Shown here in pieces: positions 3,791-22,475 of a stretch of DNA of 34,457 nucleotides. Positions within the stretch are counted from its first letter, which is position 1; each line of letters starts with the position of its first letter. The stretch is from NCBI GenBank assembly GCA_964488305.1, contig CAZAUC010000001.1:3305-37761 (forward strand), in the 5' to 3' direction. This stretch comes from an uncultured Candidatus Saccharibacteria bacterium (GTDB lineage: Bacteria; Patescibacteriota; Minisyncoccia; UBA6257; UBA9933). Position numbers and translations under genes: made by a program. The notes under the pieces were generated by a model. It was not told the DNA's origin. It did not search any database and saw nothing but the letters and a program-made list of their open reading frames with translations.

Positions 3791-4201
3791 ATGACTATTT
3801 TGAACAGATTAAAATCAAAAAAAGATAAAACACAGACGAGAAAGGCGGACAGCTCGGACGAAGCGCGCGGAAAGCAGGGCCCGGCCGTTGTCGCCGAGGG
3901 CGGACAGACAGCTATTCCGCGCCACTCCGCGTTATTGATTAGACAGCCGTGGGTGACGGAAAAGGCGGGTGATTTGTCGGCTTTGGGAAAATACGTTTTC
4001 ATAGCCGACAAGAAAACGAATAAAGCAGAAGCCAAAAGAGCCATTGAATCAATTTACGGCGTAAACGTGGAAAAGGTTAACGTTGTCAATATCAAAGGCA
4101 AGGCAAAGAGATTGGGGCGGAGCTTGGGACGGACTTCAGCCCATAAGAAAATAATTGTGACACTGAAGGAGGGCCAAAAAATTGACATTATGCCAACGTA
4201 A
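3791..4201 (+). CDS. rplW: 50S ribosomal protein L23 with about 45-aa N-terminal extension
   Basis: The C-terminal approximately 90 aa (IRQPWVTEKA...YVFIADKKTNKAEAKRAIESIYGVNVEKVN...KKIIVTL) are L23-like. No internal ATG is available. Confidence 0.85.
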   Translation: MTILNRLKSKKDKTQTRKADSSDEARGKQGPAVVAEGGQTAIPRHSALLIRQPWVTEKAGDLSALGKYVFIADKKTNKAEAKRAIESIYGVNVEKVNVVNIKGKAKRLGRSLGRTSAHKKIIVTLKEGQKIDIMPT

Positions 4202-4327
4202 AAAAATTAAAATTGAAAAATCAAAAATTAAAATGACAATGAAAAATTAAAAATTGGCAAAAGTTAAAATTTTTTCGCCAATGGCGAATACCTAAATTTT
4301 ACATTTTGATATTTACATTTTGAATTT
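4200..4327 (+). repeat. AT-rich MITE-like repeat, copy A (rplW-rplB spacer)
   Basis: About 128 nt, nearly identical to 11756-11888. Contains an internal hairpin (ttcgcc aat ggcgaa) and inverted terminal words (atcaaaatg / cattttgat). Confidence 0.85.
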
Positions 4328-6108: not shown

Positions 6109-6146
6109 AGGGCTTGGTCCCCGCTAAGCGGGGTTATCAAACCTTT
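6109..6146 (+). repeat. partial copy (first hairpin only) of the post-stop-codon element
   Basis: agggcttggtccccgctaagcggggttatcaaaccttt lies directly after the rplV TAG. A C-to-T change relative to the 214-bp copies keeps the pairing as G-U. Confidence 0.7.
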
Positions 6147-6163
6147 ATTTTAATCACATTGGC

Positions 6164-6835
6164 ATGGGACAAAAAATTAAACCAAATTCATTAAGAACGG
6201 GAGTCAGCCGGGGCTGGTTGACTAATTGGTTTCCAAAGAAAGCCAATTTGAAAGCCATGCTGGAGGAAGACGTTTTAATCAGAAACACAATAAATAAAAA
6301 AATCAGCGCCGCCGGCATTGACAGCATTTTGATAGAAAAGGCCGCCAATAATTATAAGGTTATAATCAAGGCAGCCCGCCCGGGTTTGATTATCGGTCGC
6401 GGCGGAAAAGGCATTGAAGAATTGAGTAAATTATTGGAAAGCAAGCTTAAAGAATTGAGAAGAAAAAAAGGAGTTTTGGAACAGGTCTCTCTCAATGTAA
6501 ATATTGAAGAATTAAAACGCAACGACATTTCAGCCAACGTCGTTGCCCAAAACATTGCCTGGGATTTTGAAAAAAGACTGCCGTACCGCCGGACCATCAA
6601 AAGACATTTGGACCAGATACTACAGAATAAGGAAGTTAAAGGAGCCAAAATTATGGTTAAGGGCAGATTGGACGGAGCGGAGATTGCCAGGGACGAACAT
6701 TTGGAAAAAGGCAAGTTGCCTTTGCAGACGCTTCGGGCTAACATTGATTACGGCACCGCCACCGCGTTTACGACGTACGGGACGGTCGGCATAAAAGTAT
6801 GGATTTACAAAGGAGAAGTGTTCAAGGAAAGTTAA
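6164..6835 (+). CDS. rpsC: 30S ribosomal protein S3
   Basis: MGQKIKPNSLRTGV... and the KH-domain motif ARPGLIIGRGGKGIE. Confidence 0.96.
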   Translation: MGQKIKPNSLRTGVSRGWLTNWFPKKANLKAMLEEDVLIRNTINKKISAAGIDSILIEKAANNYKVIIKAARPGLIIGRGGKGIEELSKLLESKLKELRRKKGVLEQVSLNVNIEELKRNDISANVVAQNIAWDFEKRLPYRRTIKRHLDQILQNKEVKGAKIMVKGRLDGAEIARDEHLEKGKLPLQTLRANIDYGTATAFTTYGTVGIKVWIYKGEVFKES

Positions 6836-9376: not shown

Positions 9377-9562
9377 ATGGCAAAAAAATCAGTTATTGCG
9401 CGAGCAAAGAAAAAACCAAAATATTCCACACGGGTTGTCCGCCGCTGTTTTAAATGCGGTCGCAAACGCGGCTATCTGGGTGATTTCGGGTTGTGTCGGA
9501 TTTGTTTCAGGGAAATGGCAAGTCGCGGAGAGATACCCGGCGTTAAAAAAGCGTCATGGTAA
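9377..9562 (+). CDS. rpsN: 30S ribosomal protein S14, type Z (zinc-binding)
   Basis: 61 aa with [10 protein letters not shown]...CRICFRE, giving two CxxC pairs. Confidence 0.95.
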
Positions 9563-9769
9563 GGGCTTGGTCCCCGCTAAGCGGGGCTACCAAACCTTTA
9601 CCCAGCCCTTTCTATAAAAAACGTCAGAAAGGGCTGGGTGCTCAGTTTTATCACCCCGCCAAAATTTCAACATAATATAATGGTAGATTTTAAGATAAAA
9701 ATATTTTATTGTTTATCGTACCACCCCGCTAAATTCAAAGAAATTTAGGCGGGGATAAAAATGGCATGT
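9556..9769 (+). repeat. 214-bp structured intergenic element, copy 1 (rpsN-rpsH spacer)
   Basis: Read base by base as identical to 10140-10353. It includes the upstream gene's last sense codon (TGG) and TAA stop codon and the downstream gene's ATG. Confidence 0.95.
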
Positions 9770-10146
9770 ATATACAATTATTAACTCAACTTAAGAATGG
9801 CCAGTTGGTGAAAAAAGAAAGCGTTAAAGCCGCTTATTCCGTGATGGATGAAAAAATTTTAAAATTATTGAAAGAAAATGGTTATATTAAAGATTTTGAA
9901 AAAAAAGGAAGGGGAGCGAAGAAAATATTGGACGTTAAACTGAAATATGACAATGGCCAAGGGGTAATCTCCGGAATTAAATTTATCAGCAAACCGTCGT
10001 GCCGGATTTATATAGGTTATAAAGAAATAAAACCGGTTAAACACGGTTATGGATTACTGATAATTTCAACTCCCCGGGGGATTATAACTAATAAACAGGC
10101 GAGAAAAATGAAGGTCGGCGGCGAGGCATTATTTAAAATATGGTAA
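9766..10146 (+). CDS. rpsH: 30S ribosomal protein S8
   Basis: 126 aa. The C-terminus ...GYGLLIISTPRGIITNKQARKMKVGGEALFKIW is a typical S8 end. Confidence 0.93.
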   Translation: MYIQLLTQLKNGQLVKKESVKAAYSVMDEKILKLLKENGYIKDFEKKGRGAKKILDVKLKYDNGQGVISGIKFISKPSCRIYIGYKEIKPVKHGYGLLIISTPRGIITNKQARKMKVGGEALFKIW

Positions 10147-10353
10147 GGGCTTGGTCCCCGCTAAGCGGGGCTACCAAACCTTTACCCAGCCCTTTCTATA
10201 AAAAACGTCAGAAAGGGCTGGGTGCTCAGTTTTATCACCCCGCCAAAATTTCAACATAATATAATGGTAGATTTTAAGATAAAAATATTTTATTGTTTAT
10301 CGTACCACCCCGCTAAATTCAAAGAAATTTAGGCGGGGATAAAAATGGCATGT
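10140..10353 (+). repeat. 214-bp structured intergenic element, copy 2 (rpsH-rplF spacer)
   Basis: Identical to 9556-9769. Confidence 0.95.
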
Positions 10354-10895
10354 CTAAAATAGGAAAAAAACCAATAATTATTCCCGAAAACGTTGAAGTA
10401 AAAATAAACGGCGGATTTTTGGAATTTAAAGGGAATAACGGAAATTTAAGCGTAAAAATTCCCGTTTATATAAAAGCGGAGATAAAAGAAAAGACGCTTT
10501 CGTTTTCTCCGGAAAATAATTCCAAGCAGGCGCGTGCTAATTGGGGCACAATTAGGTCGCTGGCTTATAACGCTATCGTCGGCTTGACCGAAGGTTTCAA
10601 TAAAAATTTAGAAATTGAAGGAGTCGGTTACCGGGCGAATATGGAAGGAGAAACTCTAGTTTTAAATCTAGGGCTATCTCACCCGATTAAATTTACTCCT
10701 CCCCAAGGCATAAAAATTTCGGTCGAAAAAAACGTTATCAAAATTTCCGGCGTTGACAATGCTTTGGTCGGCCAGGTAGCCGCCAAAATTAGGGCTTTTA
10801 AAAAACCCGAACCCTATAAAGGTAAAGGCATTAGATATCAAGGCGAGGTGGTCAGAAGGAAAGCCGGCAAGAAAGTAGCGGGTACGACTGCCTAA
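10350..10895 (+). CDS. rplF: 50S ribosomal protein L6
   Basis: MSKIGKKPIIIPENVEVKING... and ...KPEPYKGKGIRYQGEVVRRKAGK. Confidence 0.95.
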   Translation: MSKIGKKPIIIPENVEVKINGGFLEFKGNNGNLSVKIPVYIKAEIKEKTLSFSPENNSKQARANWGTIRSLAYNAIVGLTEGFNKNLEIEGVGYRANMEGETLVLNLGLSHPIKFTPPQGIKISVEKNVIKISGVDNALVGQVAAKIRAFKKPEPYKGKGIRYQGEVVRRKAGKKVAGTTA

Positions 10896-11325: not shown

Positions 11326-11808
11326 ATGCGGGAATTAAAAAAACAAAGTGAATTCAAAGAAAAAGTCATTGATTTGAGACGTGTTACGCGGGTGGTGGCA
11401 GGCGGTAAAAGATTTCGTTTTCGGACGACAGTAATTATTGGTGATGAAAAAGGCAGAGTGGGAGTGGGTATTGCCAAGGGAGTTGACGTGGCCCAATCGG
11501 TTGAAAAAGCCAAGGTCAGCGCCAAAAAGAGACTGATGAGGATTCCTCTTAAAGACAGAACCATTCCTTATGAAGTGGAGGCAAAATTCAGCGCCGCCCG
11601 GGTAATGATTAAGCCGGCTCGGAAAGGCCACGGTCTTAAGGCGGGCGGAGCAGTCAGGGCGGTTTTGCTTTTGGCTGGAATAAGAGACGCTACTGCTAAG
11701 TGTTTGGGCGGCACGAAAAATAAACTGACTAATGCGATGGCAACAATGAGAGCGTTAAAAAAATTAAAAATTGAAAAATCAAAAATCAAAATGACAATGA
11801 AAAATTAA
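11326..11808 (+). CDS. rpsE: 30S ribosomal protein S5
   Basis: VIDLRRVTRVVAGGKRFRFRTTVIIGD...GHGLKAGGAVRAVLLLAGI. The last approximately 15 codons lie inside an AT-rich repeat element. Confidence 0.94.
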   Translation: MRELKKQSEFKEKVIDLRRVTRVVAGGKRFRFRTTVIIGDEKGRVGVGIAKGVDVAQSVEKAKVSAKKRLMRIPLKDRTIPYEVEAKFSAARVMIKPARKGHGLKAGGAVRAVLLLAGIRDATAKCLGGTKNKLTNAMATMRALKKLKIEKSKIKMTMKN

Positions 11809-11888
11809 AAATTGGCAAACGTTAAAATATTTTCGCCAATGGCGAAATACCTAAATTTTACATTTTGATATTTACATTTTGAATTTTA
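11756..11888 (+). repeat. AT-rich MITE-like repeat, copy B (rpsE 3' end to rplO)
   Basis: Same element as 4200-4327 apart from a few substitutions and indels. The rpsE stop codon (11806-11808) lies inside it. Confidence 0.85.
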
Positions 11889-14512: not shown

Positions 14513-15277
14513 ATGCCGATTACTTTAAAATCTCAAAAAGAAATTCAAGGTATTGCAGCGGCCGGGAAAATTTTGGCTAAAGTTCTTCAGCGGCTTAAAA
14601 AAGAAGCGAAAGCCGGAATCAAGTTAAGCCAGTTGAACAAATTGGCATATCAATTAACCAGAGAACAAGGAGCCCAGCCGGCTTTTTTGGGTTATAAACC
14701 GGACGGCGCGGCCAAGCCGTTCGGCGCTTCAATTTGCGCTTCCGTTAACGAGGTAGTGGTTCACGGTTTTCCTTCGGATTACAAACTTAAATCAGGCGAT
14801 ATTCTAAAACTTGATTTCGGAGTGGAATATAAAAAATTTTTTGCCGATGCGGCCATAAGCATTGCCATTGGCGCTGTTTCGCAGGAAGCAAAAGTTTTGA
14901 TTAAGGCCACCAATCTGGCTTTAAGAAGAGCGATTAAAATGGCCAGGGCCGGCAATACCTTGGGAGATATTGGCTGGGCAATTAAGAGAACGGCTGAAGC
15001 AAAGAAATTAAAAACAATTAAAGAGCTAACCGGCCACGGCGTTGGCTTTGAACTTCACGAGGAGCCCACTATTTATAATTTTGGCAGAAGGGGCGAGGGA
15101 ATCAAACTGGAGCTGGGAATGGTTTTGGCAATTGAACCAATGCTGGCCATTGGCACGGACAAAATCACTCAGAGGCCGGATGAAAGCTGGGCCACGGCTG
15201 ATAATTCACTTGCGGCTCATTTTGAACACACAATAGCAATTACCAAGAAAGGGCCGTTGGTATTGACAAAAATATAA
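14513..15277 (+). CDS. map: type I methionine aminopeptidase
   Basis: VVHGFP...LKLDFG...GHGVGFELHEEP...LAIEPM...HFEHTI metal-ligand motifs. Confidence 0.95.
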   Translation: MPITLKSQKEIQGIAAAGKILAKVLQRLKKEAKAGIKLSQLNKLAYQLTREQGAQPAFLGYKPDGAAKPFGASICASVNEVVVHGFPSDYKLKSGDILKLDFGVEYKKFFADAAISIAIGAVSQEAKVLIKATNLALRRAIKMARAGNTLGDIGWAIKRTAEAKKLKTIKELTGHGVGFELHEEPTIYNFGRRGEGIKLELGMVLAIEPMLAIGTDKITQRPDESWATADNSLAAHFEHTIAITKKGPLVLTKI

Positions 15278-15383
15278 AGATATGATAATATGAGCTAAAG
15301 GTGAAAGGCTCATTGTGAGCGACCCGTATAGGCGGGGTAATAAAAGAGCCGACGGCTCTTTAAAAAAAGATAGGAGGTATGCC

Positions 15384-16145
15384 ATGAAAAATATGGTGAG
15401 CCGCACCCTGTCGGTGCACAAGGAGCACGAGCTCCTACTGAAACTGGAGACCGCAGGTCTCACAGAACCCCTTGCCCAGAAAGTTATTAGCTCGAAGGGT
15501 AACGAACTCGCTGCGAAAGTGGTGAAGTTCATTCAGAACGGCGGCTTTGAACCGACAACCAGCCAGAAGCGTGCCCGTGAAATTATGGGCAAGAACATGT
15601 TCGGTGTCGAGGAAGCTATCCAGTATTTCGGGGTTAACCCGACCCGCCAGCAAACCCTTGTTTTGTCGGAGATTCCTTTCTCTGAAGACGTACTCCAAAA
15701 AGCAAAGGATACTCACGTTCTGATAGCCGTCTTTCCGCTCTCGGTTCTCGAGATTCGCGGGAAAGTGGATTCCAAGTTGTTCTACAGCCAGTCGTGGTAT
15801 AACAAAGAATCATTCGCCAAGGAACGCGGTGAAATAAGTTGGCAACTGGTTCGCAAGACGCCGGTGGACAACTCCACCTCAAAGAACTGGGAAGAGCAAT
15901 TAGTTTTTATTTCAGAAGAGGACGAAGTTCCGACAGCCCAAGTGATGGTTTATACCATCATCGGTCATTATCTGGATACTGGCGAACGTCTGTTCGAGCA
16001 CATCTACGTCCGAACATCATCTGTGGATTCGGATGGCCGCCGTGTTGACGTCGGCAACTTCGTTTCGTATGGTCTCTATGTCAGCCACTACTGGGATGGC
16101 CTCAGCAGTGACGACATCGGTGTCTCGTCCGCTCGGAAGTTCTGA
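15384..16145 (+). CDS. DGR variable (target) protein with C-terminal CLec-like VR and no signal peptide
   Basis: ATG at 15384 is preceded by AGGAGG at 15373-15378. The ORF track instead starts at GTG 15315. The C-terminus ...YWDGLSSDDIGVSSARKF carries the VR. The gene is visibly more G+C-rich than its neighbours. Confidence 0.8.
   Translation: MKNMVSRTLSVHKEHELLLKLETAGLTEPLAQKVISSKGNELAAKVVKFIQNGGFEPTTSQKRAREIMGKNMFGVEEAIQYFGVNPTRQQTLVLSEIPFSEDVLQKAKDTHVLIAVFPLSVLEIRGKVDSKLFYSQSWYNKESFAKERGEISWQLVRKTPVDNSTSKNWEEQLVFISEEDEVPTAQVMVYTIIGHYLDTGERLFEHIYVRTSSVDSDGRRVDVGNFVSYGLYVSHYWDGLSSDDIGVSSARKF
16022..16143 (+). repeat. DGR variable repeat (VR) including the IMH-like 3' end
   Basis: Matches TR at an offset of 484 nt. 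It differs at 16099, 16101, 16102, 16108 and 16113, where TR has A in every case, and at 16139 (G versus TR C). Confidence 0.9.
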
Positions 16146-16183
16146 ACCTTGAAGACTTGAGAACTTGATTCTCTTGAGTCCTT

Positions 16184-16227
16184 GAGCCTTCGGCGATATT
16201 TTCGCAGGAGGCTCTTTTCTTTTTTTA
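16184..16227 (+). terminator. intrinsic terminator after the target gene
   Basis: gagcct (16184-16189) pairs with aggctc (16209-16214), with an inner gcga/tcgc stem. Followed by a T-rich run at 16215-16227. Confidence 0.6.
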
Positions 16228-16505
16228 AAATATCCTATAAAATACAAACGTCTGCTAATGAAGGTTAGACTACGGTTTAACCTCGCGGGCGTCTCATCTT
16301 TGAGATATCGCCAGAGTATCGTTGTTTACGGATAATGGTAGCGTGTGATAAAAGATGGAGATTGAACTTCTTGCTTGTCTTTAGAGGAGATGTTCTGGAT
16401 TTATTTCAGGGTTGCTCCCGAATAAAATACAGGAATGAGAGGATATAGGTCTTTTAAGGCGGTAAACCTCTATTTCCAGTGACAGGGATGAAGATAGGCA
16501 AATAA

Positions 16506-16627
16506 TGTGGATTCGGATGGCCGCCGTGTTGACGTCGGCAACTTCGTTTCGTATGGTCTCTATGTCAGCCACTACTGGGATGACAACAGCAATGACAACA
16601 TCGGTGTCTCGTCCGCTCGGAACTTCT
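16506..16627 (+). repeat. DGR template repeat (TR)
   Basis: Non-coding copy of the VR. It reads GAC AAC AGC AAT GAC AAC where the VR reads GGC CTC AGC AGT GAC GAC. Confidence 0.9.
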
Positions 16628-16686
16628 TTCTCTGTCTGACCTTTTAATACCCTCCTTATTCGGGGAGTATTTCGTTTATCGTTCAG

Positions 16687-17052
16687 TTATTCTTTTGTTG
16701 ATTTAATCCATCCCCCAAGCATTTTTCCGATTTCCTGCAATTTTTCTTGTAGGATGAGATATTTTTTATTATCCAACGATTTAATTTCATTAGATAATCT
16801 AATTAGTATCTTTAATAAACTGATTTTGGCGTCTATTTTCCTAAGATGCGTTAATTTTTCTTGTTTCGGCAAATAAAAAGTTTTTATTGAAAGTTCTAAG
16901 GTGTCTAAAATTAAATTTTCAATCTTTTGACCCAAAGAATACTTCTCTATTTTCGGGAAAAACCTAACGTAGTCGTGAAATAATTTATAGAATTCACAAA
17001 TCTTATGCACCAACGGCGCATCAAATTTAGAAAATCCTGCGGGGGGGGGCAT
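16687..17052 (-). CDS. avd: Avd-like four-helix-bundle accessory protein (23S rRNA IVS protein family)
   Basis: 121 aa. FPKIEKYSLGQKIENLILDTLE...IGKMLGGWIK matches the four-helix-bundle / DGR accessory variability determinant pattern. The start is ATG followed by C9. Confidence 0.8.
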   Translation of the reverse strand: MPPPAGFSKFDAPLVHKICEFYKLFHDYVRFFPKIEKYSLGQKIENLILDTLELSIKTFYLPKQEKLTHLRKIDAKISLLKILIRLSNEIKSLDNKKYLILQEKLQEIGKMLGGWIKSTKE

Positions 17053-17113
17053 TCATAGAAATAAATTTAAAATTCAAAAATCAAAATGTAAAATTTATGA
17101 CCGAATAATTTCA

Positions 17114-17584
17114 TTGGAAAATTTATTTTTAGCTTGGCAAGAATTCCGGCAAGGTAAAAGAAATAAACAGGATGTTCAAGAATTTGAATTCAATTTGGAA
17201 GACAACCTTTTTAACCTTCACCGAGAATTAAAAGCCAAAATATACCGACATTCTAATTATACCGCATTTTCAATATGTGATCCAAAGCCGCGGCGTATTC
17301 ATAAAGCCTGCGTTCGCGACCGAATATTACACCACGCCGTTTTCCGAATTCTATACCAGATTTTTGACAAAAATTTTATTTTTGATTCATATTCGTGCCG
17401 CTTAGCTAAAGGGACGCACCGCGCAGTAAATAGATTAGGAAAATTTTGCCGCCAAATAAGCAAAAACAATCGCCAAAACATTTTTGCCTTGAAATGCGAC
17501 ATTAAAAAGTTTTTTGATTCAGTTAGCCAAAATATTTTATTAGAACTTATTAAGAGCAAAATCCGAGACGAGAACACTTTATGA
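17114..17584 (+). CDS. DGR reverse transcriptase, N-terminal fragment (ends at the in-frame TGA 17582-17584)
   Basis: ENLFLAWQEFRQGKRNK...DPKPRRIHKACVRDRILHHAV...KCDIKKFFDSV correspond to RT motifs 1-3. The TTG start is uncertain, because the frame stays open and conserved-looking (KIYDRIISL) upstream back to 16991. Confidence 0.85.
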   Translation: MENLFLAWQEFRQGKRNKQDVQEFEFNLEDNLFNLHRELKAKIYRHSNYTAFSICDPKPRRIHKACVRDRILHHAVFRILYQIFDKNFIFDSYSCRLAKGTHRAVNRLGKFCRQISKNNRQNIFALKCDIKKFFDSVSQNILLELIKSKIRDENTL

Positions 17585-17632
17585 TTAATTACGAAAATTG
17601 TTAAAAGTTTTGAAAAAACTAGAAATCAAGGT

Positions 17633-18151
17633 TTGCCTTTGGGCAATGTCACCAGCCAATTATTTGCCAATATCTATTTAAATGAATTAGATCAATTTAT
17701 TAAACATAAATTAAAAATTAAATATTATCTTCGCTATTGCGACGATTTCGTGATTTTAAGCGAAAATAAAAAATATTTAATTGACCTAATTCCTTTGATT
17801 AGTAATTTTCTAAAAGATAAATTGAAATTGATGCTTCATCTTGATAAAATAATTATCAGGAAATACCATCAGGGCATTGATTTTCTTGGCTACGTTATAT
17901 TGCCGCATTACCGCGTTCTGCGGACAAAAACAAAAAGGAAGATATTAAGGAAAATTATCGGAAAAAACAGGGATTTTCAAGACAACCTGATATTCGAAGA
18001 ATCTTTTAACCAAACTTTACAATCTTATTTTGGCGTTTTAAAACATTGTCAGGGATATAAGATTAGACAGAGAATCCTATATTGTTTAAAACAACAAAGT
18101 AGTGGACATTCTCAACAAGATAACCTAAAATTAAACATTGATAATAATTAA
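17633..18151 (+). CDS. DGR reverse transcriptase, C-terminal fragment (same frame as 17114-17584)
   Basis: Contains LPLGNVTSQLFANIYL (the DGR-typical SQ motif 4), RYCDDFVIL (YxDD catalytic motif) and GIDFLGY. The frame is open back to 17585, immediately after the TGA. Confidence 0.85.
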   Translation: MPLGNVTSQLFANIYLNELDQFIKHKLKIKYYLRYCDDFVILSENKKYLIDLIPLISNFLKDKLKLMLHLDKIIIRKYHQGIDFLGYVILPHYRVLRTKTKRKILRKIIGKNRDFQDNLIFEESFNQTLQSYFGVLKHCQGYKIRQRILYCLKQQSSGHSQQDNLKLNIDNN

Positions 18152-18196
18152 GTTAATTCGTATATTTATATAAAATTCGTAATTCGTAGACAAATT

Positions 18197-18946
18197 ATGA
18201 AGCCCTATCTTTCAATCATTATCCCCGCTTATAACGAATACAAAAGATTACCAATGACTTTGACGGATGTTAATAAGCATTTGGCGGATTTTGATTTTCC
18301 CTGCGAAGTTCTTGTAGTGGACGACGGTTCAAAAGATGCCACCGAAGACGTGGTCAGGCGTTTTTCTCATCTGATGCAGAACTTGCGCTTGATTGACAAC
18401 AAGCAAAATCACGGCAAGGGCTGGGTAGTGCGCCAGGGAATGCTTGAAGCCAAAGGTGAAATCCGGCTTTTTATGGACGCTGATAATTCCACCTCCATTG
18501 ACCAATTCAAAAATATGATTCCTTATTTCAAGCAAGGATATGACGTAGTGATTGGTTCACGAGACGTCAAAGGCGCCAAACTGGTGCCGCCCCAGCCGTG
18601 GTACAAGCGATTAGCCGGTAATATTGGAAATCTAATAATTCAAATTCTACTTTTGCCGGGAATGTGGGATACCCAGTGCGGCTTCAAGGCGTTTACCGAA
18701 GAGGCAGCCAAGAAAATTTTCCCCTTGATGAAAATAGACCGCTGGGCCTTTGACGTTGAGTCCCTGGTTCTGGCGAAAAAACTCGGTTATAAAATAAAAG
18801 AAATGCCGGTTACTTGGGTTAACAGCCCGGAATCAAAAGTAAAATTATCCGGCTACGTTAATTTTTTCTCGGAAGTTTTGAAAATAAAAAGGTGGATGAT
18901 GACAGATAAGTATAATTTAAAATTAAAAAATCAAAATACAAAATGA
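18197..18946 (+). CDS. family 2 glycosyltransferase (dolichyl/polyprenyl-phosphate beta-glucosyltransferase-like)
   Basis: LSIIIPAYNE...VLVVDDGSKDAT...NHGKG...FMDADNS motifs. Confidence 0.85.
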   Translation: MKPYLSIIIPAYNEYKRLPMTLTDVNKHLADFDFPCEVLVVDDGSKDATEDVVRRFSHLMQNLRLIDNKQNHGKGWVVRQGMLEAKGEIRLFMDADNSTSIDQFKNMIPYFKQGYDVVIGSRDVKGAKLVPPQPWYKRLAGNIGNLIIQILLLPGMWDTQCGFKAFTEEAAKKIFPLMKIDRWAFDVESLVLAKKLGYKIKEMPVTWVNSPESKVKLSGYVNFFSEVLKIKRWMMTDKYNLKLKNQNTK

Positions 18947-18981
18947 CCCGCCTGACTTCGCCTGAGGCGAAATCAGGCGGG
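18947..18981 (+). repeat. GC-rich palindromic (REP-like) hairpin immediately after the GT2 stop codon
   Basis: cccgcctgacttcgcc tga ggcgaaatcaggcggg. No T-run follows. The arms resemble the palindrome inside adk (14023-14057). Confidence 0.6.
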
Positions 18982-19127
18982 CGGGTAACGCAAGGTCTAA
19001 TGCTGGGGACATCCGATATCCAAAATATTAACGTTAATTTTGGGACATTGGATGTTCAAAAGTTAATAATTTTAACACTTTAAATTGTCATTTTAATCTT
19101 TGATTTTTGCATTTTGTATTTATTATT

Positions 19128-19583
19128 ATGGTTCACCATCTTACCAAGGAAGGATTTGAAGAGCTGAAAAGAGAGCTTGAAACCCTTAAGAAAGAGGGCC
19201 GGGCGGAAATTGCCGAACAACTTAGGCGTGCCAAAGAATACGGCGACCTTTCCGAAAATTCCGAATACGCCGACGCCAAAGAAGCGCAAAGTAAGCTGGA
19301 AAGCCGCATTTTTGAATTGGAAGAAATTATCAGGAATGCCGTTTTAATCAGGAAAAGCCAGCAGAAAGACGTGGTTAACGTCGGCTCAACGATTGAGGTT
19401 CAGAGAGGGGCTAAAAATTTTAAATATACGATTGTCGGTTCACGCGAGGCCAAGCCGGAAGCGAATTTGATTTCCAATGAATCGCCTTTGGGCCAGGCGT
19501 TTCTGGGCAAGCGGGCGGGCGATACAGTGGAAATAGAAACTCCCAACGGCAAGGCAAAATATAAAATATTAAAAATAGAATAA
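19128..19583 (+). CDS. greA: transcription elongation factor GreA
   Basis: LTKEGFEELKRELETLK...AKEYGDLSENSEYADAKEAQ...NLISNESPLGQAFLGKRAGD. ATG at 19128 is preferred over TTG at 19107. Confidence 0.93.
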   Translation: MVHHLTKEGFEELKRELETLKKEGRAEIAEQLRRAKEYGDLSENSEYADAKEAQSKLESRIFELEEIIRNAVLIRKSQQKDVVNVGSTIEVQRGAKNFKYTIVGSREAKPEANLISNESPLGQAFLGKRAGDTVEIETPNGKAKYKILKIE

Positions 19584-19591
19584 AAATTTTT

Positions 19592-21178
19592 ATGTTTTGG
19601 GCGGATAGATTAATTAAAGAAATAAAAGAAAAATATAAAAAGAAAATAGATTTCAAAAAACCTCTTATTATTCGCGATGAAAAAACCGCCTCGGGCAGGG
19701 TTCACGTTGGTTCACTTCGCGGAGTCGTCATTCACGGAATTATTTCCGAAATCCTAAAAGAAAAGGGTATTACCAACTCTTTTCTTTTTGAGATAAATGA
19801 TTTTGACCTTTTAGACAATTTGCCGGCTTATCTGGATGAGAAAAAATTCACGCCTTATTTAGGTAGACTCCTTTATTTGACGCCTTCACCTGATGGAAAA
19901 GCGAAAAATTATGCTGAATATTTCGGTCAGGAATTCGTTAACGTCATAAAAGAAATCGGTTTCTCGCCGGAATTTTATCGCTCAAGTGAAATATACAAAT
20001 CCGGCAAATTTAATGATTTAATAAGAATTGCCATAGAGAGAACAGATGATATTAGAGAGATCTACCGCCGCGTTTCCGGCTCAGTTAAAGAAAAGGACTG
20101 GTACCCTTTTAACGTTGTTTGCGAGAAATGCCAAAAGATTGCTACCACCAGAGTAACCTCGTTTGACGGGGAAGAAGTTGAATACGTCTGCGAAAAGGAT
20201 GCCGTTGAGTGGACCAAGGGCTGCGGCTTTAAAGGAAAAATTTCTCCTTTTAACGGCAATGGTAAGTTACCATGGAAAGTTGAATGGGCGGCAAAATTCA
20301 AATTATTCGGAGTGGATATTGAAGGCGCGGGCAAAGACCATTCCACCAAAGGCGGCGCCAGAGAAGTGGCTGACGCCATCAGCCGCGAAATTTTTGGTTA
20401 CGAACCGCCTTTTAATATACCATACGAATTTTTTCATGTGGCTGGCAGAAAAATGTCTTCGTCAAAAGGCGCTGGTTCTTCAGCCAGAGAAATTGCGGAT
20501 TTACTGCCGCCGGAACTTTTCCGATTCCTAATTTTACATAAAGAGCCGAAAAAGGTTATAGATTTCGTGCCCGATGGCGATACTGTTCCAGTCATTTACG
20601 ATTTATACGATAAAATGGCTGATTTTTATTTCAAAAAAGCAGAAGGCGATTATGGCCGGCTTTTTTACCTTTCTCATTTACCGGAGGAACGCGATAAGAT
20701 AAAGGAAAGATTTTTGCCGCGTTTTTCGCAAATCGCTTTTCTCGCGCAGATGCCGCATTTGAATACGGAAGAAGAAGTGGAAAAAATGAAAGGTTCAGGG
20801 TTAACGGCCGACGATAAAAAAGAAATTTCTCTGCGCTCCCGTTATGCCTTAAATTGGATTAATGCTTATGCGCCGGAAGATTACAAATACGAATTGCAGG
20901 AAAAAGAAATTCCGGTAGCCGCGAAAAAATTTAATCCAAAACAGAAAGAAGCGTTAAAAGAAATTTTGGCTTACGTGAAATCACAAAAATCTCTTGACGG
21001 CCAGGCGCTTCACACAAAAATTCATGAAATCAAAAAACAGCTTGAAATTGAGCCGCGCGAACTTTTTAGCGCGATTTATTTGAGTTTCTTGGGTAAAGAA
21101 AGTGGTCCGAAAGCCGGTTGGTTTTTGAGCATTTTGGATAAAAAATTCTTGGAAAAAAGATTGAGTGAAGTCATTTAA
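19592..21178 (+). CDS. lysK: class I lysyl-tRNA synthetase
   Basis: 528 aa with the HVGSLRG (HIGH-like) and KMSSSKG (KMSKS) motifs. The overall architecture matches archaeal-type LysRS. Confidence 0.88.
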   Translation: MFWADRLIKEIKEKYKKKIDFKKPLIIRDEKTASGRVHVGSLRGVVIHGIISEILKEKGITNSFLFEINDFDLLDNLPAYLDEKKFTPYLGRLLYLTPSPDGKAKNYAEYFGQEFVNVIKEIGFSPEFYRSSEIYKSGKFNDLIRIAIERTDDIREIYRRVSGSVKEKDWYPFNVVCEKCQKIATTRVTSFDGEEVEYVCEKDAVEWTKGCGFKGKISPFNGNGKLPWKVEWAAKFKLFGVDIEGAGKDHSTKGGAREVADAISREIFGYEPPFNIPYEFFHVAGRKMSSSKGAGSSAREIADLLPPELFRFLILHKEPKKVIDFVPDGDTVPVIYDLYDKMADFYFKKAEGDYGRLFYLSHLPEERDKIKERFLPRFSQIAFLAQMPHLNTEEEVEKMKGSGLTADDKKEISLRSRYALNWINAYAPEDYKYELQEKEIPVAAKKFNPKQKEALKEILAYVKSQKSLDGQALHTKIHEIKKQLEIEPRELFSAIYLSFLGKESGPKAGWFLSILDKKFLEKRLSEVI

Positions 21179-21239
21179 GCTGAAATGCGGATGTGTTATT
21201 ATTAAATAAACTAGTGGCTAGTCGTTAGCGGCTAAACTT

Positions 21240-22475
21240 ATGCTTGATATTAATTTAATTCGTCAAAATCGCGATAAGGTTAAAAAAGGCATTGCTTCAA
21301 AAAACGCCGATTTTAAATTAGTGGATAAATTTTTGGGTTTGGACGAAGAATGGCGAAAATTAACAAAGGAAATTGACGATTTGAGAGCTGAGCAGAAAAA
21401 ATTAAGTAACCAAAGAGAGATTCAAGAAGCATCACAAATAAAAAATAAGATTCAGCTTATAGAGAAAGATTTGAGAAATATTGAGAAAAAAAGAGAAGAA
21501 ATTTTATACCAAATGCCGAATTTGCCGTTGGATAACGTTCCTGCGGGCAAAGACGAAAAAGACAACGTTGTTGTTCACGAGGCGGGCAATAAACCGAAAT
21601 TTGATTTTGAACCAAAGGATTATCTGGAACTTGCCGAAAAACTGGATTTGATCGACGTTGAGAGAGCAGCTAAGGTCAGCGGCAGCCGTTTCGGCTATTT
21701 GAAAAACCAGGCGGCTCTTTTGGAATTCGGTCTCGTAAAATTGGCAATGGACACCGCAATTAAAGAGGGATTTGTACCGGTAGTCCCGCCAGTGATGATT
21801 AGGGAAGAAATGATGAAAGCGATGGGTTACGTTGATTCGCAGAAGGATAGAGAAGAAAGTTATTTTTCGGAAAAAGACAAACAATACCTCGTCGGCACTT
21901 CCGAGCAGTCAATCGGGCCGATGCATTCCGATGAAATTTTTAATGAAAAAGATTTGCCCAAAAGATACATTGCCTTTTCTTCTTGTTTTCGTCGTGAAGC
22001 CGGTTCCTATGGTAAGGACACCAAAGGTATTTTAAGAGTTCATCAGTTTGATAAAGTGGAGATGTTTAGCTTTGTTAAACCCGGAGATTCAGAGAAAGAA
22101 CATCAATTATTTTTGGAAATTGAAGAGAAATTAATGAAAGACTTGGATTTGCCTTACCAGGTAGTCCAGCTTTGCACTGGCGACCTATCCGTCCCTTCGG
22201 CTAACACTTTTGACATCGAAACTTGGATTCCCAGCGAAAACAAATATCGTGAAACTCACTCCACCTCCAACTGTACTGATTTTCAGGCTAGGAGGTTAAA
22301 TATTCGCTATCGGGATAAATCCGGGCAATTAAATTTCGTTCATACTCTTAACGGAACCGCTTTTGCCATTGGTAGAATGCTTATTGCCATCTTAGAAAAC
22401 TATCAGCAAAAAGACGGCTCAATTTTGGTACCCAAGGTTCTCCGAAAATACTTAAACTTCAAAAAAATCGGATAA
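21240..22475 (+). CDS. serS: seryl-tRNA synthetase
   Basis: N-terminal coiled coil (MLDINLIRQN...) and class II motifs (FRREAGSYGKDTKGILRVHQF, GTAFAIGRMLIAILENYQ). Confidence 0.95.
   Translation: MLDINLIRQNRDKVKKGIASKNADFKLVDKFLGLDEEWRKLTKEIDDLRAEQKKLSNQREIQEASQIKNKIQLIEKDLRNIEKKREEILYQMPNLPLDNVPAGKDEKDNVVVHEAGNKPKFDFEPKDYLELAEKLDLIDVERAAKVSGSRFGYLKNQAALLEFGLVKLAMDTAIKEGFVPVVPPVMIREEMMKAMGYVDSQKDREESYFSEKDKQYLVGTSEQSIGPMHSDEIFNEKDLPKRYIAFSSCFRREAGSYGKDTKGILRVHQFDKVEMFSFVKPGDSEKEHQLFLEIEEKLMKDLDLPYQVVQLCTGDLSVPSANTFDIETWIPSENKYRETHSTSNCTDFQARRLNIRYRDKSGQLNFVHTLNGTAFAIGRMLIAILENYQQKDGSILVPKVLRKYLNFKKIG

Follow-up and report, generated by a model that had tools for sequence, protein, structure and literature searches.

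A 34,457-nt stretch of contig CAZAUC010000001.1 (assembly GCA_964488305.1, uncultured Candidatus Saccharibacteria bacterium), hereafter called the window, carries at positions 15384-18151 a locus that is a genuine diversity-generating retroelement (DGR). It is a chromosomal element with the layout typical of the candidate phyla radiation (CPR), in which a target gene ending in a variable repeat (VR) is followed by a template repeat (TR), an optional avd gene and a reverse transcriptase (RT) gene, and this copy is most likely dead or nearly so. Its identity follows from the adenine-specific VR/TR mismatches, an Avd homolog scoring above the family cut-off, the RT motifs and the RT match to the Bordetella phage enzyme (bRT), and a mismatch in the 3′ block of the repeats which recurs in relatives; on these points the core of the sequence-only reading, which had called a DGR from the letters and their translations, is borne out. 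The same reading had also pictured a hypervariable system, and for this copy it finds no support: the RT gene contains an in-frame TGA, its ATG is out of frame, eight TR adenines have been lost, and the VR is identical in seven contigs.

A repeat search returned a single 122-nt direct repeat in the window (16022-16143 and 16506-16627; 95% identity, 484-nt spacing), and base-by-base comparison reproduced exactly the six mismatches listed previously, five at a TR adenine and one C/G: A16583/G16099, A16585/C16101, A16586/T16102, A16592/G16108, A16597/G16113 and C16623/G16139 (TR/VR). The extent of the VR, which covers the last 40 codons and two bases of the TGA stop, also agrees, as do the translations of the mismatch stretch, D N S N D N in the TR and G L S S D D in the VR. 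Given 23 adenines per 122 nt of TR, the hypergeometric probability that at least five out of six mismatches fall on A is 8.5e-4, and upon careful alignment the adenine restriction holds: non-A mismatches are not spread through the repeat, the only one being located in the 3′ block. The VR and TR flanks are unrelated, with divergence being immediate on both sides, and the conserved 20-mer GGTGTCTCGTCCGCTCGGAA from the 3′ block is present at only two sites in the window, one in the VR and one in the TR, with zero sites expected by chance. The A-specific pattern is replicated in 13 clean VR/TR pairs of related loci, which display 10-25 mismatches, almost all at TR adenines, their TRs containing 25-33 adenines each. 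In 12 of these 13 pairs, all of the same architecture, the 3′ block again holds a non-A mismatch, which is either C>G at the same site or C>A at an adjacent one. Such recurrence supports the view that the single non-A mismatch in the GC-rich block, already placed there by the earlier reading, corresponds to the putative distinction between the initiation of mutagenic homing sequence (IMH) and its TR counterpart (IMH*).

We regarded an RT as DGR-type if its motif 4 reads [LIV]GxxxSQ rather than QGxxxSP, and if it is closer to bRT than to group II intron and retron RTs. Both motifs picked out by eye, LPLGNVTSQ and YCDD, are indeed present, and the profile of the protein matches the DGR type: with the internal stop taken as W, the solved structure that it matches best is 8ub7, the DGR RT of Bordetella phage (137 bits, E 1e-38), and group II intron and retron-type RTs yield 65 bits or less. 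The RT also matches phrog_1423 (1e-102), and a tblastn search of phages retrieved Bordetella phages, ANMV-1 and others; no exact-protein record was found for the two RT fragments or for protein P0244. The neighboring four-helix candidate for Avd exceeds the cut-off of the NCBIfam equivalog NF033474 DivGenRetAVD (88.2 bits versus 80), and matches Pfam bAvd (4e-21) and the PHROG family ‘Avd protein of DGR’ (6e-24). Its orientation had been implied to be that of its neighbors, and it is in fact on the minus strand. Conservation of the segment 16687-16792 was considered as a possible 3′ RNA spacer, and this interpretation was rejected, as the 3-nt periodicity and the Avd motif GKMLGGWI point to protein-coding constraint on avd. 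It is hardly credible that the locus is not a DGR, and that the repeat is an ordinary duplicated 3′ gene fragment next to an unrelated RT from a group II intron, a retron or a defence system. Such an explanation could invoke the small number of mismatches, six only, and the weak partial NCBIfam matches of the RT to group II intron, retron and Drt models; however, all of those matches are far below the cut-offs, the best structural relative is a DGR RT accompanied by a DGR-specific Avd, the adenine bias is replicated in the 13 relatives, and an Rfam scan of positions 15000-18500 (E <= 1) yielded no family, be it an intron RNA or a retron msr/msd.

The coordinates fit architecture B3, in which the order is TR-(avd)-RT and avd is on the reverse strand; it was defined by Wu et al. 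2018 (PMC5758913, legend to Figure 5) and comprises 90% of the CPR DGR set in that study. According to Roux et al. 2021 (PMC8144416), CPR DGRs form a separate clade and their targets lack transmembrane or known domains. DGRs with this layout and domain-less targets have already been described for CPR bacteria (PMC5758913, PMC8144416). The window locus resembles the CPR B3 DGRs (‘DGR clade 2’ of Roux et al.) in gene order, strands and host group, in having a target without a transmembrane segment or recognizable domain, and in its chromosomal location beside ribosomal-protein genes, an association noted by those authors as well, but differs from them in its disrupted RT and adenine-depleted TR. 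On one side the cassette is flanked by map, at the end of an L6-L18-S5-L15-SecY-Adk-Map operon, and on the other by genes for a GT2 glycosyltransferase, greA and class I lysS.

The first RT lesion is the in-frame TGA at 17582-17584, in the context ENTL*LITKIV. Tryptophan occupies the equivalent site in 13 of 21 translated relatives, including the closest RTs (L025 and L013), indicating that the stop arose by a single TGG-to-TGA transition. Recoding of TGA under genetic code 4 or 25 was rejected, since TGA terminates 5 of the 33 open reading frames (ORFs) in the window, among them the target gene at the normal end of its family. The second lesion is at the start, where the window reads ATG-T-AAAATTTAT and the relatives read ATGAAAATTTAT, so that the ATG aligning with the start codon of the relatives is shifted out of frame. 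With an in-frame TGA and the ancestral ATG out of frame, the gene does not provide the intact RT that would be required of an activity-capable element. The remainder of the RT ORF is still open, which suggests that the lesions are recent.

A separate type of frame disruption is seen in the RTs of three relatives belonging to different Patescibacteria lineages, each of which carries a (GA)6-9 tract at the same site, around nt 512 and just upstream of LGxxxSQ (L024:7200-7225, L034:7210-7228 and L050:6646-6666). The reading frame breaks at this tract in all three assemblies, which could mean that the DGR RT is switched ON/OFF by strand slippage or that the same assembly error has occurred repeatedly.

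The TR itself has been altered. The TRs of the closest relatives (L068, L069 and L015) are near-identical to one another and have AAC or AAT at every variable codon. Relative to their consensus, the window TR has 11 differences, eight of them at a consensus A and all eight within 16522-16570, and at each of the 11 changed positions it is the same as the window VR; its adenine count has dropped from 30 in the consensus to 23. Against the same consensus, the window VR has 17 changed positions, and 13 of these are at A, as is ordinary for a VR of this family. Within the repeat pair, the first 77 nt contain 11 adenines without any difference, and the A-mismatches are concentrated in the last 45 nt (Fisher P = 0.04), where all five fall in one 15-nt stretch. 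Gene conversion from VR to TR across the 5′ ~65-77 nt is the simplest history, in that a single event would account both for the identity of the 5′ parts, including the 11 adenines, and for the A-mismatches in the last 45 nt; an alternative route, in which mutagenized complementary DNA (cDNA) integrated into the TR and was followed by partial homing, is less likely.

At the level of consensus contigs, the VR is fixed in every population sampled. Six Joint Genome Institute (JGI) contigs from different samples (L001-L006) match the window at 99.7-100% identity and carry at most 18 single-nucleotide polymorphisms (SNPs) elsewhere, and the VR and TR are unchanged wherever these contigs reach them. 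The identical VR is found in seven contigs from several samples which do carry SNPs at other positions. When metagenomes were scanned with a pattern that had N at each TR adenine, the known contig was the sole match and no VR variants came up, and heterogeneity at positions matching TR adenines was not seen in the comparison, which was one of consensus contigs rather than reads. In sister lineages, by comparison, proteins with identical first ~210 residues have very different VRs (P0245, P0246, P0248, P0249 and P0253; P0001 versus P0242). We argue that the DGRs of this family are active and that the window copy is fixed and decaying. The TGA, the displaced ATG, the loss of TR adenines, and the fixation of the VR while those of sister lineages vary make it most likely that the element is inactive.

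It is very improbable that either the resemblance of the 5′ part of the TR to the VR or the TGA of the RT is an assembly or sequencing artefact caused by the repeats. Contigs do often break at or near the TR (L002 and L006), and repeats are error-prone for assemblers; nevertheless, the same TR with its own unique flanks is present in independently assembled JGI contigs from several samples, and the TR and VR flanks share a prefix that would not be long enough for a switch of de Bruijn paths. The TGA is also present in a separate Logan assembly, where contig L063 is 100% identical to the window over 16553-21682, though possibly derived from the same reads.

Several observations weigh against an inactive element. 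The avd gene has remained intact, as have the 5′ RNA domain described below, the IMH-like block and the 3′ stem-loop, and the 172 codons after the RT stop are still open in DNA of 28-36% GC. Among stop codons, UGA lends itself most to read-through as Trp, and the open codons together with the intact parts would therefore fit a leaky element. The five positions with A in the TR and another base in the VR show that mutagenic homing did occur in this lineage, and the TR changes at 16588 and 16593, which lie outside the eroded tract and are shared with the VR, imply that homing continued after TR drift had begun. The sequence fits self-homing as well as gene conversion. Furthermore, the VR comparison was made on consensus contigs, in which minority VR variants are possible, and the exact-sequence look-up that yielded the seven contigs is biased towards identical VRs.

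A rival view is that the DGR retains some activity, at a low or regulated level, with UGA codon 157 being read as Trp or suppressed, translation starting at TTG 17114 or at a non-canonical codon, and the TR simply offering fewer diversifiable codons. We consider this unlikely, while acknowledging that the RT ORF is open on both sides of the TGA, which falls exactly on a Trp codon, that avd and all RNA and DNA elements are preserved, that the five mismatches are A-specific, and that relative L013 is likewise devoid of an obvious in-frame RT ATG. What speaks against it is that TGA is a normal stop in the window genome, that one RT gene has acquired two independent lesions, that its TR is eroded, and that the VR is the same in seven contigs of several samples, as opposed to the variation in sister lineages. 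An inactive, decaying element remains the preferred interpretation.

By analogy with the DGR of Bordetella phage BPP-1, a working relative would produce a transcript from near position 16250 carrying a structured 5′ domain, the TR and a 3′ stem-loop. The RT-Avd complex would bind this transcript and reverse-transcribe the TR, misincorporating nucleotides opposite adenines, and the cDNA would replace the VR up to the IMH-like block, recoding about 11 AAY codons (Y, pyrimidine) in the last 40 residues of the target, a soluble protein of 253 aa. In the window lineage, the VR may have been written from an ancestral TR with its full set of adenines; subsequently, the VR would have overwritten the 5′ two-thirds of the TR through gene conversion between nearby repeats, or, with lower likelihood, through cDNA homing into the TR; and the RT lesions would have arisen recently.

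TR erosion and DGR loss seem to recur in this target family. Relative L066, which has neither avd nor RT, keeps the leader preceding the TR, and its TR (6122-6244) is VR-like in the 3′ part. Truncated TR-leader remnants without a TR are found after target genes that lack avd and RT (L065:5857-6053, L012:5899-6031, L032:5852-5994 and L044:5875-5955). The state of L066 and these remnants indicate that loss of the DGR is frequent in the family.

The 360 nt separating the target gene from the TR, which take in the leader, show strong conservation even in relatives with no more than 40-55% identity in RT and Avd. For the structured domain of about 250 nt, RNAalifold yields 67 predicted pairs, and compensatory changes are seen in 35. 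A count of pairs over the alignment showed that 96.8% of cells are paired and that 36 of the 67 pairs are changed on both sides, compared with 10-13 in slid structures, and 0 of 500 shuffles reach the observed 36. Invariant G-U pairs place the domain on the same strand as the TR, and it is situated directly upstream of the TR in every TR-bearing locus matched by nhmmer, whatever the gene order. No description of a large leader 5′ of the TR was found in the DGR literature searched, the coverage of which did not extend to Paul et al. 2017. Handa et al. inspected only 40 nt upstream of the TR (10.1101/2023.10.23.563531); they reported 9-bp Avd-binding stem-loops downstream of TRs, including those of CPR DGRs. 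By analogy, the stem-loop at 16647-16670 is a candidate for an Avd-binding stem-loop and/or a terminator of the TR RNA.

Two further features near the repeats were observed. Five CTTGA motifs are packed into the 38 nt after the VR and stop codon, and are kept in 16/16 loci compared; the small hairpin within this stretch (16159-16173) shows weak covariation, and the stretch possibly represents a target-site element comparable to the hairpin downstream of IMH in BPP-1. In addition, purine-rich 16481-16493 can pair with the pyrimidine-rich TR end and 3′ flank at 16623-16636 (free energy -16 kcal/mol), and similar duplexes are predicted in relatives. This putative duplex, which resembles the ‘cPRT stop’ duplex of Bordetella DGR RNA, would compete with the well-supported helix 6 of the leader and is devoid of clean covariation.

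Table 1. Features of the DGR locus in window coordinates, listed from 5′ to 3′ on the forward strand.
Feature	Position	Strand	Details
DGR target gene, 253 aa	15384..16145	+	ORF; Shine-Dalgarno sequence GGAGG at 15373-15377; TGA stop
Variable repeat (VR)	16022..16143	+	Last 40 codons and two stop-codon bases of the target gene
GC-rich 3′ block of VR (IMH-like)	16116..16143	+	TR counterpart at 16600-16627; sole difference G16139 versus C16623
CTTGA-repeat stretch just after VR	16146..16183	+	Conserved in 16 loci; hairpin 16159-16173
Intrinsic terminator of target gene	16184..16226	+	Stem-loop 16184-16214 followed by a T-run; pairs kept in relatives
Putative -10 box (TATAAT-like)	16236-16241	+	Between the target terminator and the RNA domain
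Structured non-coding RNA domain, 10 helices	16251..16501	+	Fused 5′ to the TR; ends 4 nt before it
Template repeat (TR)	16506..16627	+	Non-coding; 5′ 65 nt eroded towards the VR sequence
9-bp stem-loop	16647..16670	+	20 nt downstream of the TR, with a U-rich tract after it; compensatory changes in relatives; terminator-like site predicted
avd, 121 aa, intact	16687..17052	-	NCBIfam DivGenRetAVD, Pfam bAvd, PHROG
DGR RT, disrupted	17086..18151	+	Ancestral ATG 17086 out of frame (one inserted T); TTG 17114 is the first canonical in-frame start; TGA at 17582-17584
RT motif LPLGNVTSQ	17633-17659	+	Read from the sequence (GLPLGNVTSQ)
RT motif YCDD	17735-17746	+	Read from the sequence

Comparison with the BPP-1 DGR, which has the order mtd-VR, avd, TR, brt, reveals similarities in the RT, which is homologous to bRT (1e-38), in the presence of an Avd homolog, in the A-to-N differences between TR and VR, in a GC-rich 3′ block that differs at a single non-A site (IMH versus IMH*), and in the 9-bp stem-loop just downstream of the TR, which is like the Avd-binding stem-loop. 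In contrast, avd in the window is inverted and placed between the TR and the RT, and the sequence upstream of the TR is a large structured RNA domain instead of avd coding sequence. Moreover, about 60 nt separate the TR from the convergent avd, as opposed to the 140-nt spacer (Sp) of BPP-1, and the target is a soluble cellular protein encoded by an element which is not in a phage, whereas that of BPP-1 is a phage tail-fibre protein.

The target gene belongs to a large family. More than 1000 homologs are 67-90% identical to it, with a hypervariable C-terminus and without any Pfam domain, and 3625 clusters formed at 50% identity match the target profile at E <= 1e-3 in a search of 1.84 billion representatives. 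The family core corresponds approximately to residues 57-253, many members of ~200 aa consist of the core alone, and tandem paralogs with differing N-termini adjoin some of the DGRs (L017, L019, L035, L038 and L049). In the C-terminal consensus, SSVDSDGxRVxVGxFDSxGLxVxxxWDxxRxDxLGVSSARKF, the x positions are AAY codons in TRs. Sequence-profile searches of Pfam, NCBIfam, PHROG and all PDB chains gave no match to the target, nor was there one to Pfam FGE-sulfatase or DUF1566, in line with the earlier statement that its N-terminal ~200 aa match no recognized family, and the ~200-aa core appears to constitute a family of its own. The absence of a signal peptide was likewise confirmed by hydropathy, which detected no transmembrane segment either (maximum 19-residue Kyte-Doolittle mean 1.22).

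The C-terminus had also been likened to the end of a short C-type lectin (CLec) variable fold. The AlphaFold2 model has a predicted local distance difference test score (pLDDT) of 89 and a predicted template-modelling score (pTM) of 0.82, with residues 10-107 forming a helical N-terminal part and the C-terminal domain being of alpha/beta type and ending in the VR strands; divergent paralogs were needed to obtain it, as a shallow alignment of sequences at least 67% identical gave a pLDDT of 52.7. A Foldseek search of the model against PDB and BFVD returned no significant match, with all PDB matches at E >= 0.3 and template-modelling score (TM) <= 0.29. Nearly all of the best weak PDB matches are of the FGE-sulfatase/CLec type (CarF, EgtB, SenA, FGE, PorK, TvpA 2y3c and a snake-venom C-type lectin), and the viral library (BFVD) gave one C-type lectin and one SUMF-like protein, both at E > 1. 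The CLec idea is weakly supported, in that the top matches are of the FGE/EgtB/TvpA type but none is significant, and no sequence-profile match was found; from the model, a C-terminal CLec/FGE-like fold carrying the VR is plausible but unproven. With the C-type lectin or FGE-like variable proteins Mtd and TvpA (2y3c), the target shares the location of its VR at the extreme C-terminus and the interleaving of AAY-encoded variable codons with conserved G/W/R/D residues, but it differs in having no significant structural match (best E 0.3, TM <= 0.29) and no sequence match.

A scan of one genome per species identified 55 loci with target homologs, and about 15 of them share the order target-TR-(avd)-RT. 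Most of the record titles name Patescibacteria (Paceibacterota, Nealson-, Giovannoni-, Uhr-, Jorgensen-, Veblen-, Komeili- and Lloydbacteria), and a few loci are labelled otherwise, for instance as ‘uncultured Gammaproteobacteria’ or ‘Candidatus Angelobacter’. Nucleotide homology to relatives has a sharp onset at 15362 and extends to around 16792, a point within the 3′ end of avd, and over this stretch the identity to L007, L068 and L069 is about 90%. The RT, however, is only 52-53% identical to the RTs of those three loci at the protein level, its closest relative being that of L025 (66%), and the part of avd beyond 16792 together with the RT shows ~52% protein identity to the same three. GC content is ~45-49% in the target-leader-TR module versus 28-36% in the avd/RT module, and close relatives are found in unrelated genomic contexts, with L069 adjoining a serine recombinase. 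The disparity between ~90% DNA identity and 52-53% RT protein identity, combined with the differing contexts, indicates that the target-leader-TR and avd/RT modules have been recombined.

Two other repeats were noticed in the window. A perfect 217-nt direct repeat (9556-9772 and 10140-10356, 584 nt apart) lies inside the ribosomal-protein operon, and contig L001, from another sample, starts within it; the repeat may have arisen by genuine duplication or during assembly. A second, AT-rich repeat, AAATTAAAATTGAAAAATCAAAAATTAAAATG..., is present in intergenic DNA at 4200-4288 and 11758-11846, with a related motif at 17064-17094 in the avd-RT spacer, at 18914-18944 and at 19090-19130 on the minus strand, and could be a promoter/UP-like element or a small mobile repeat.

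As a DGR, the locus adds little; CPR bacteria are already known for an abundance of DGRs with domain-less targets and this gene order. Most likely, the window copy is a recent fossil, and as such it provides a clear, datable example of the death of a DGR, involving a Trp nonsense mutation, loss of the start codon, and a TR overwritten by its own VR; decay of this kind matters for surveys that take a TR/VR pair by itself as a sign of activity. For the target's family, which is very large, unannotated and made up of soluble proteins, there is now a confident structure model, and the covarying TR-attached RNA domain, which is missing from Rfam, could guide the biochemistry of CPR DGR ribonucleoproteins. 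We tentatively propose, as a combination that is less likely than not to hold, that the 10-helix leader (16251-16501) is a previously undescribed, obligatory part of the DGR RNA of CPR B3 elements, which together with the 3′ stem-loop replaces the Sp in its scaffolding, priming and stop roles, and that VR-to-TR transfer erodes the TR after RT failure, as here and in L066. If so, VR-to-TR transfer would constitute a previously undocumented route of DGR decay, and the most DGR-rich branch of life would be using a differently organized reverse-transcription ribonucleoprotein.

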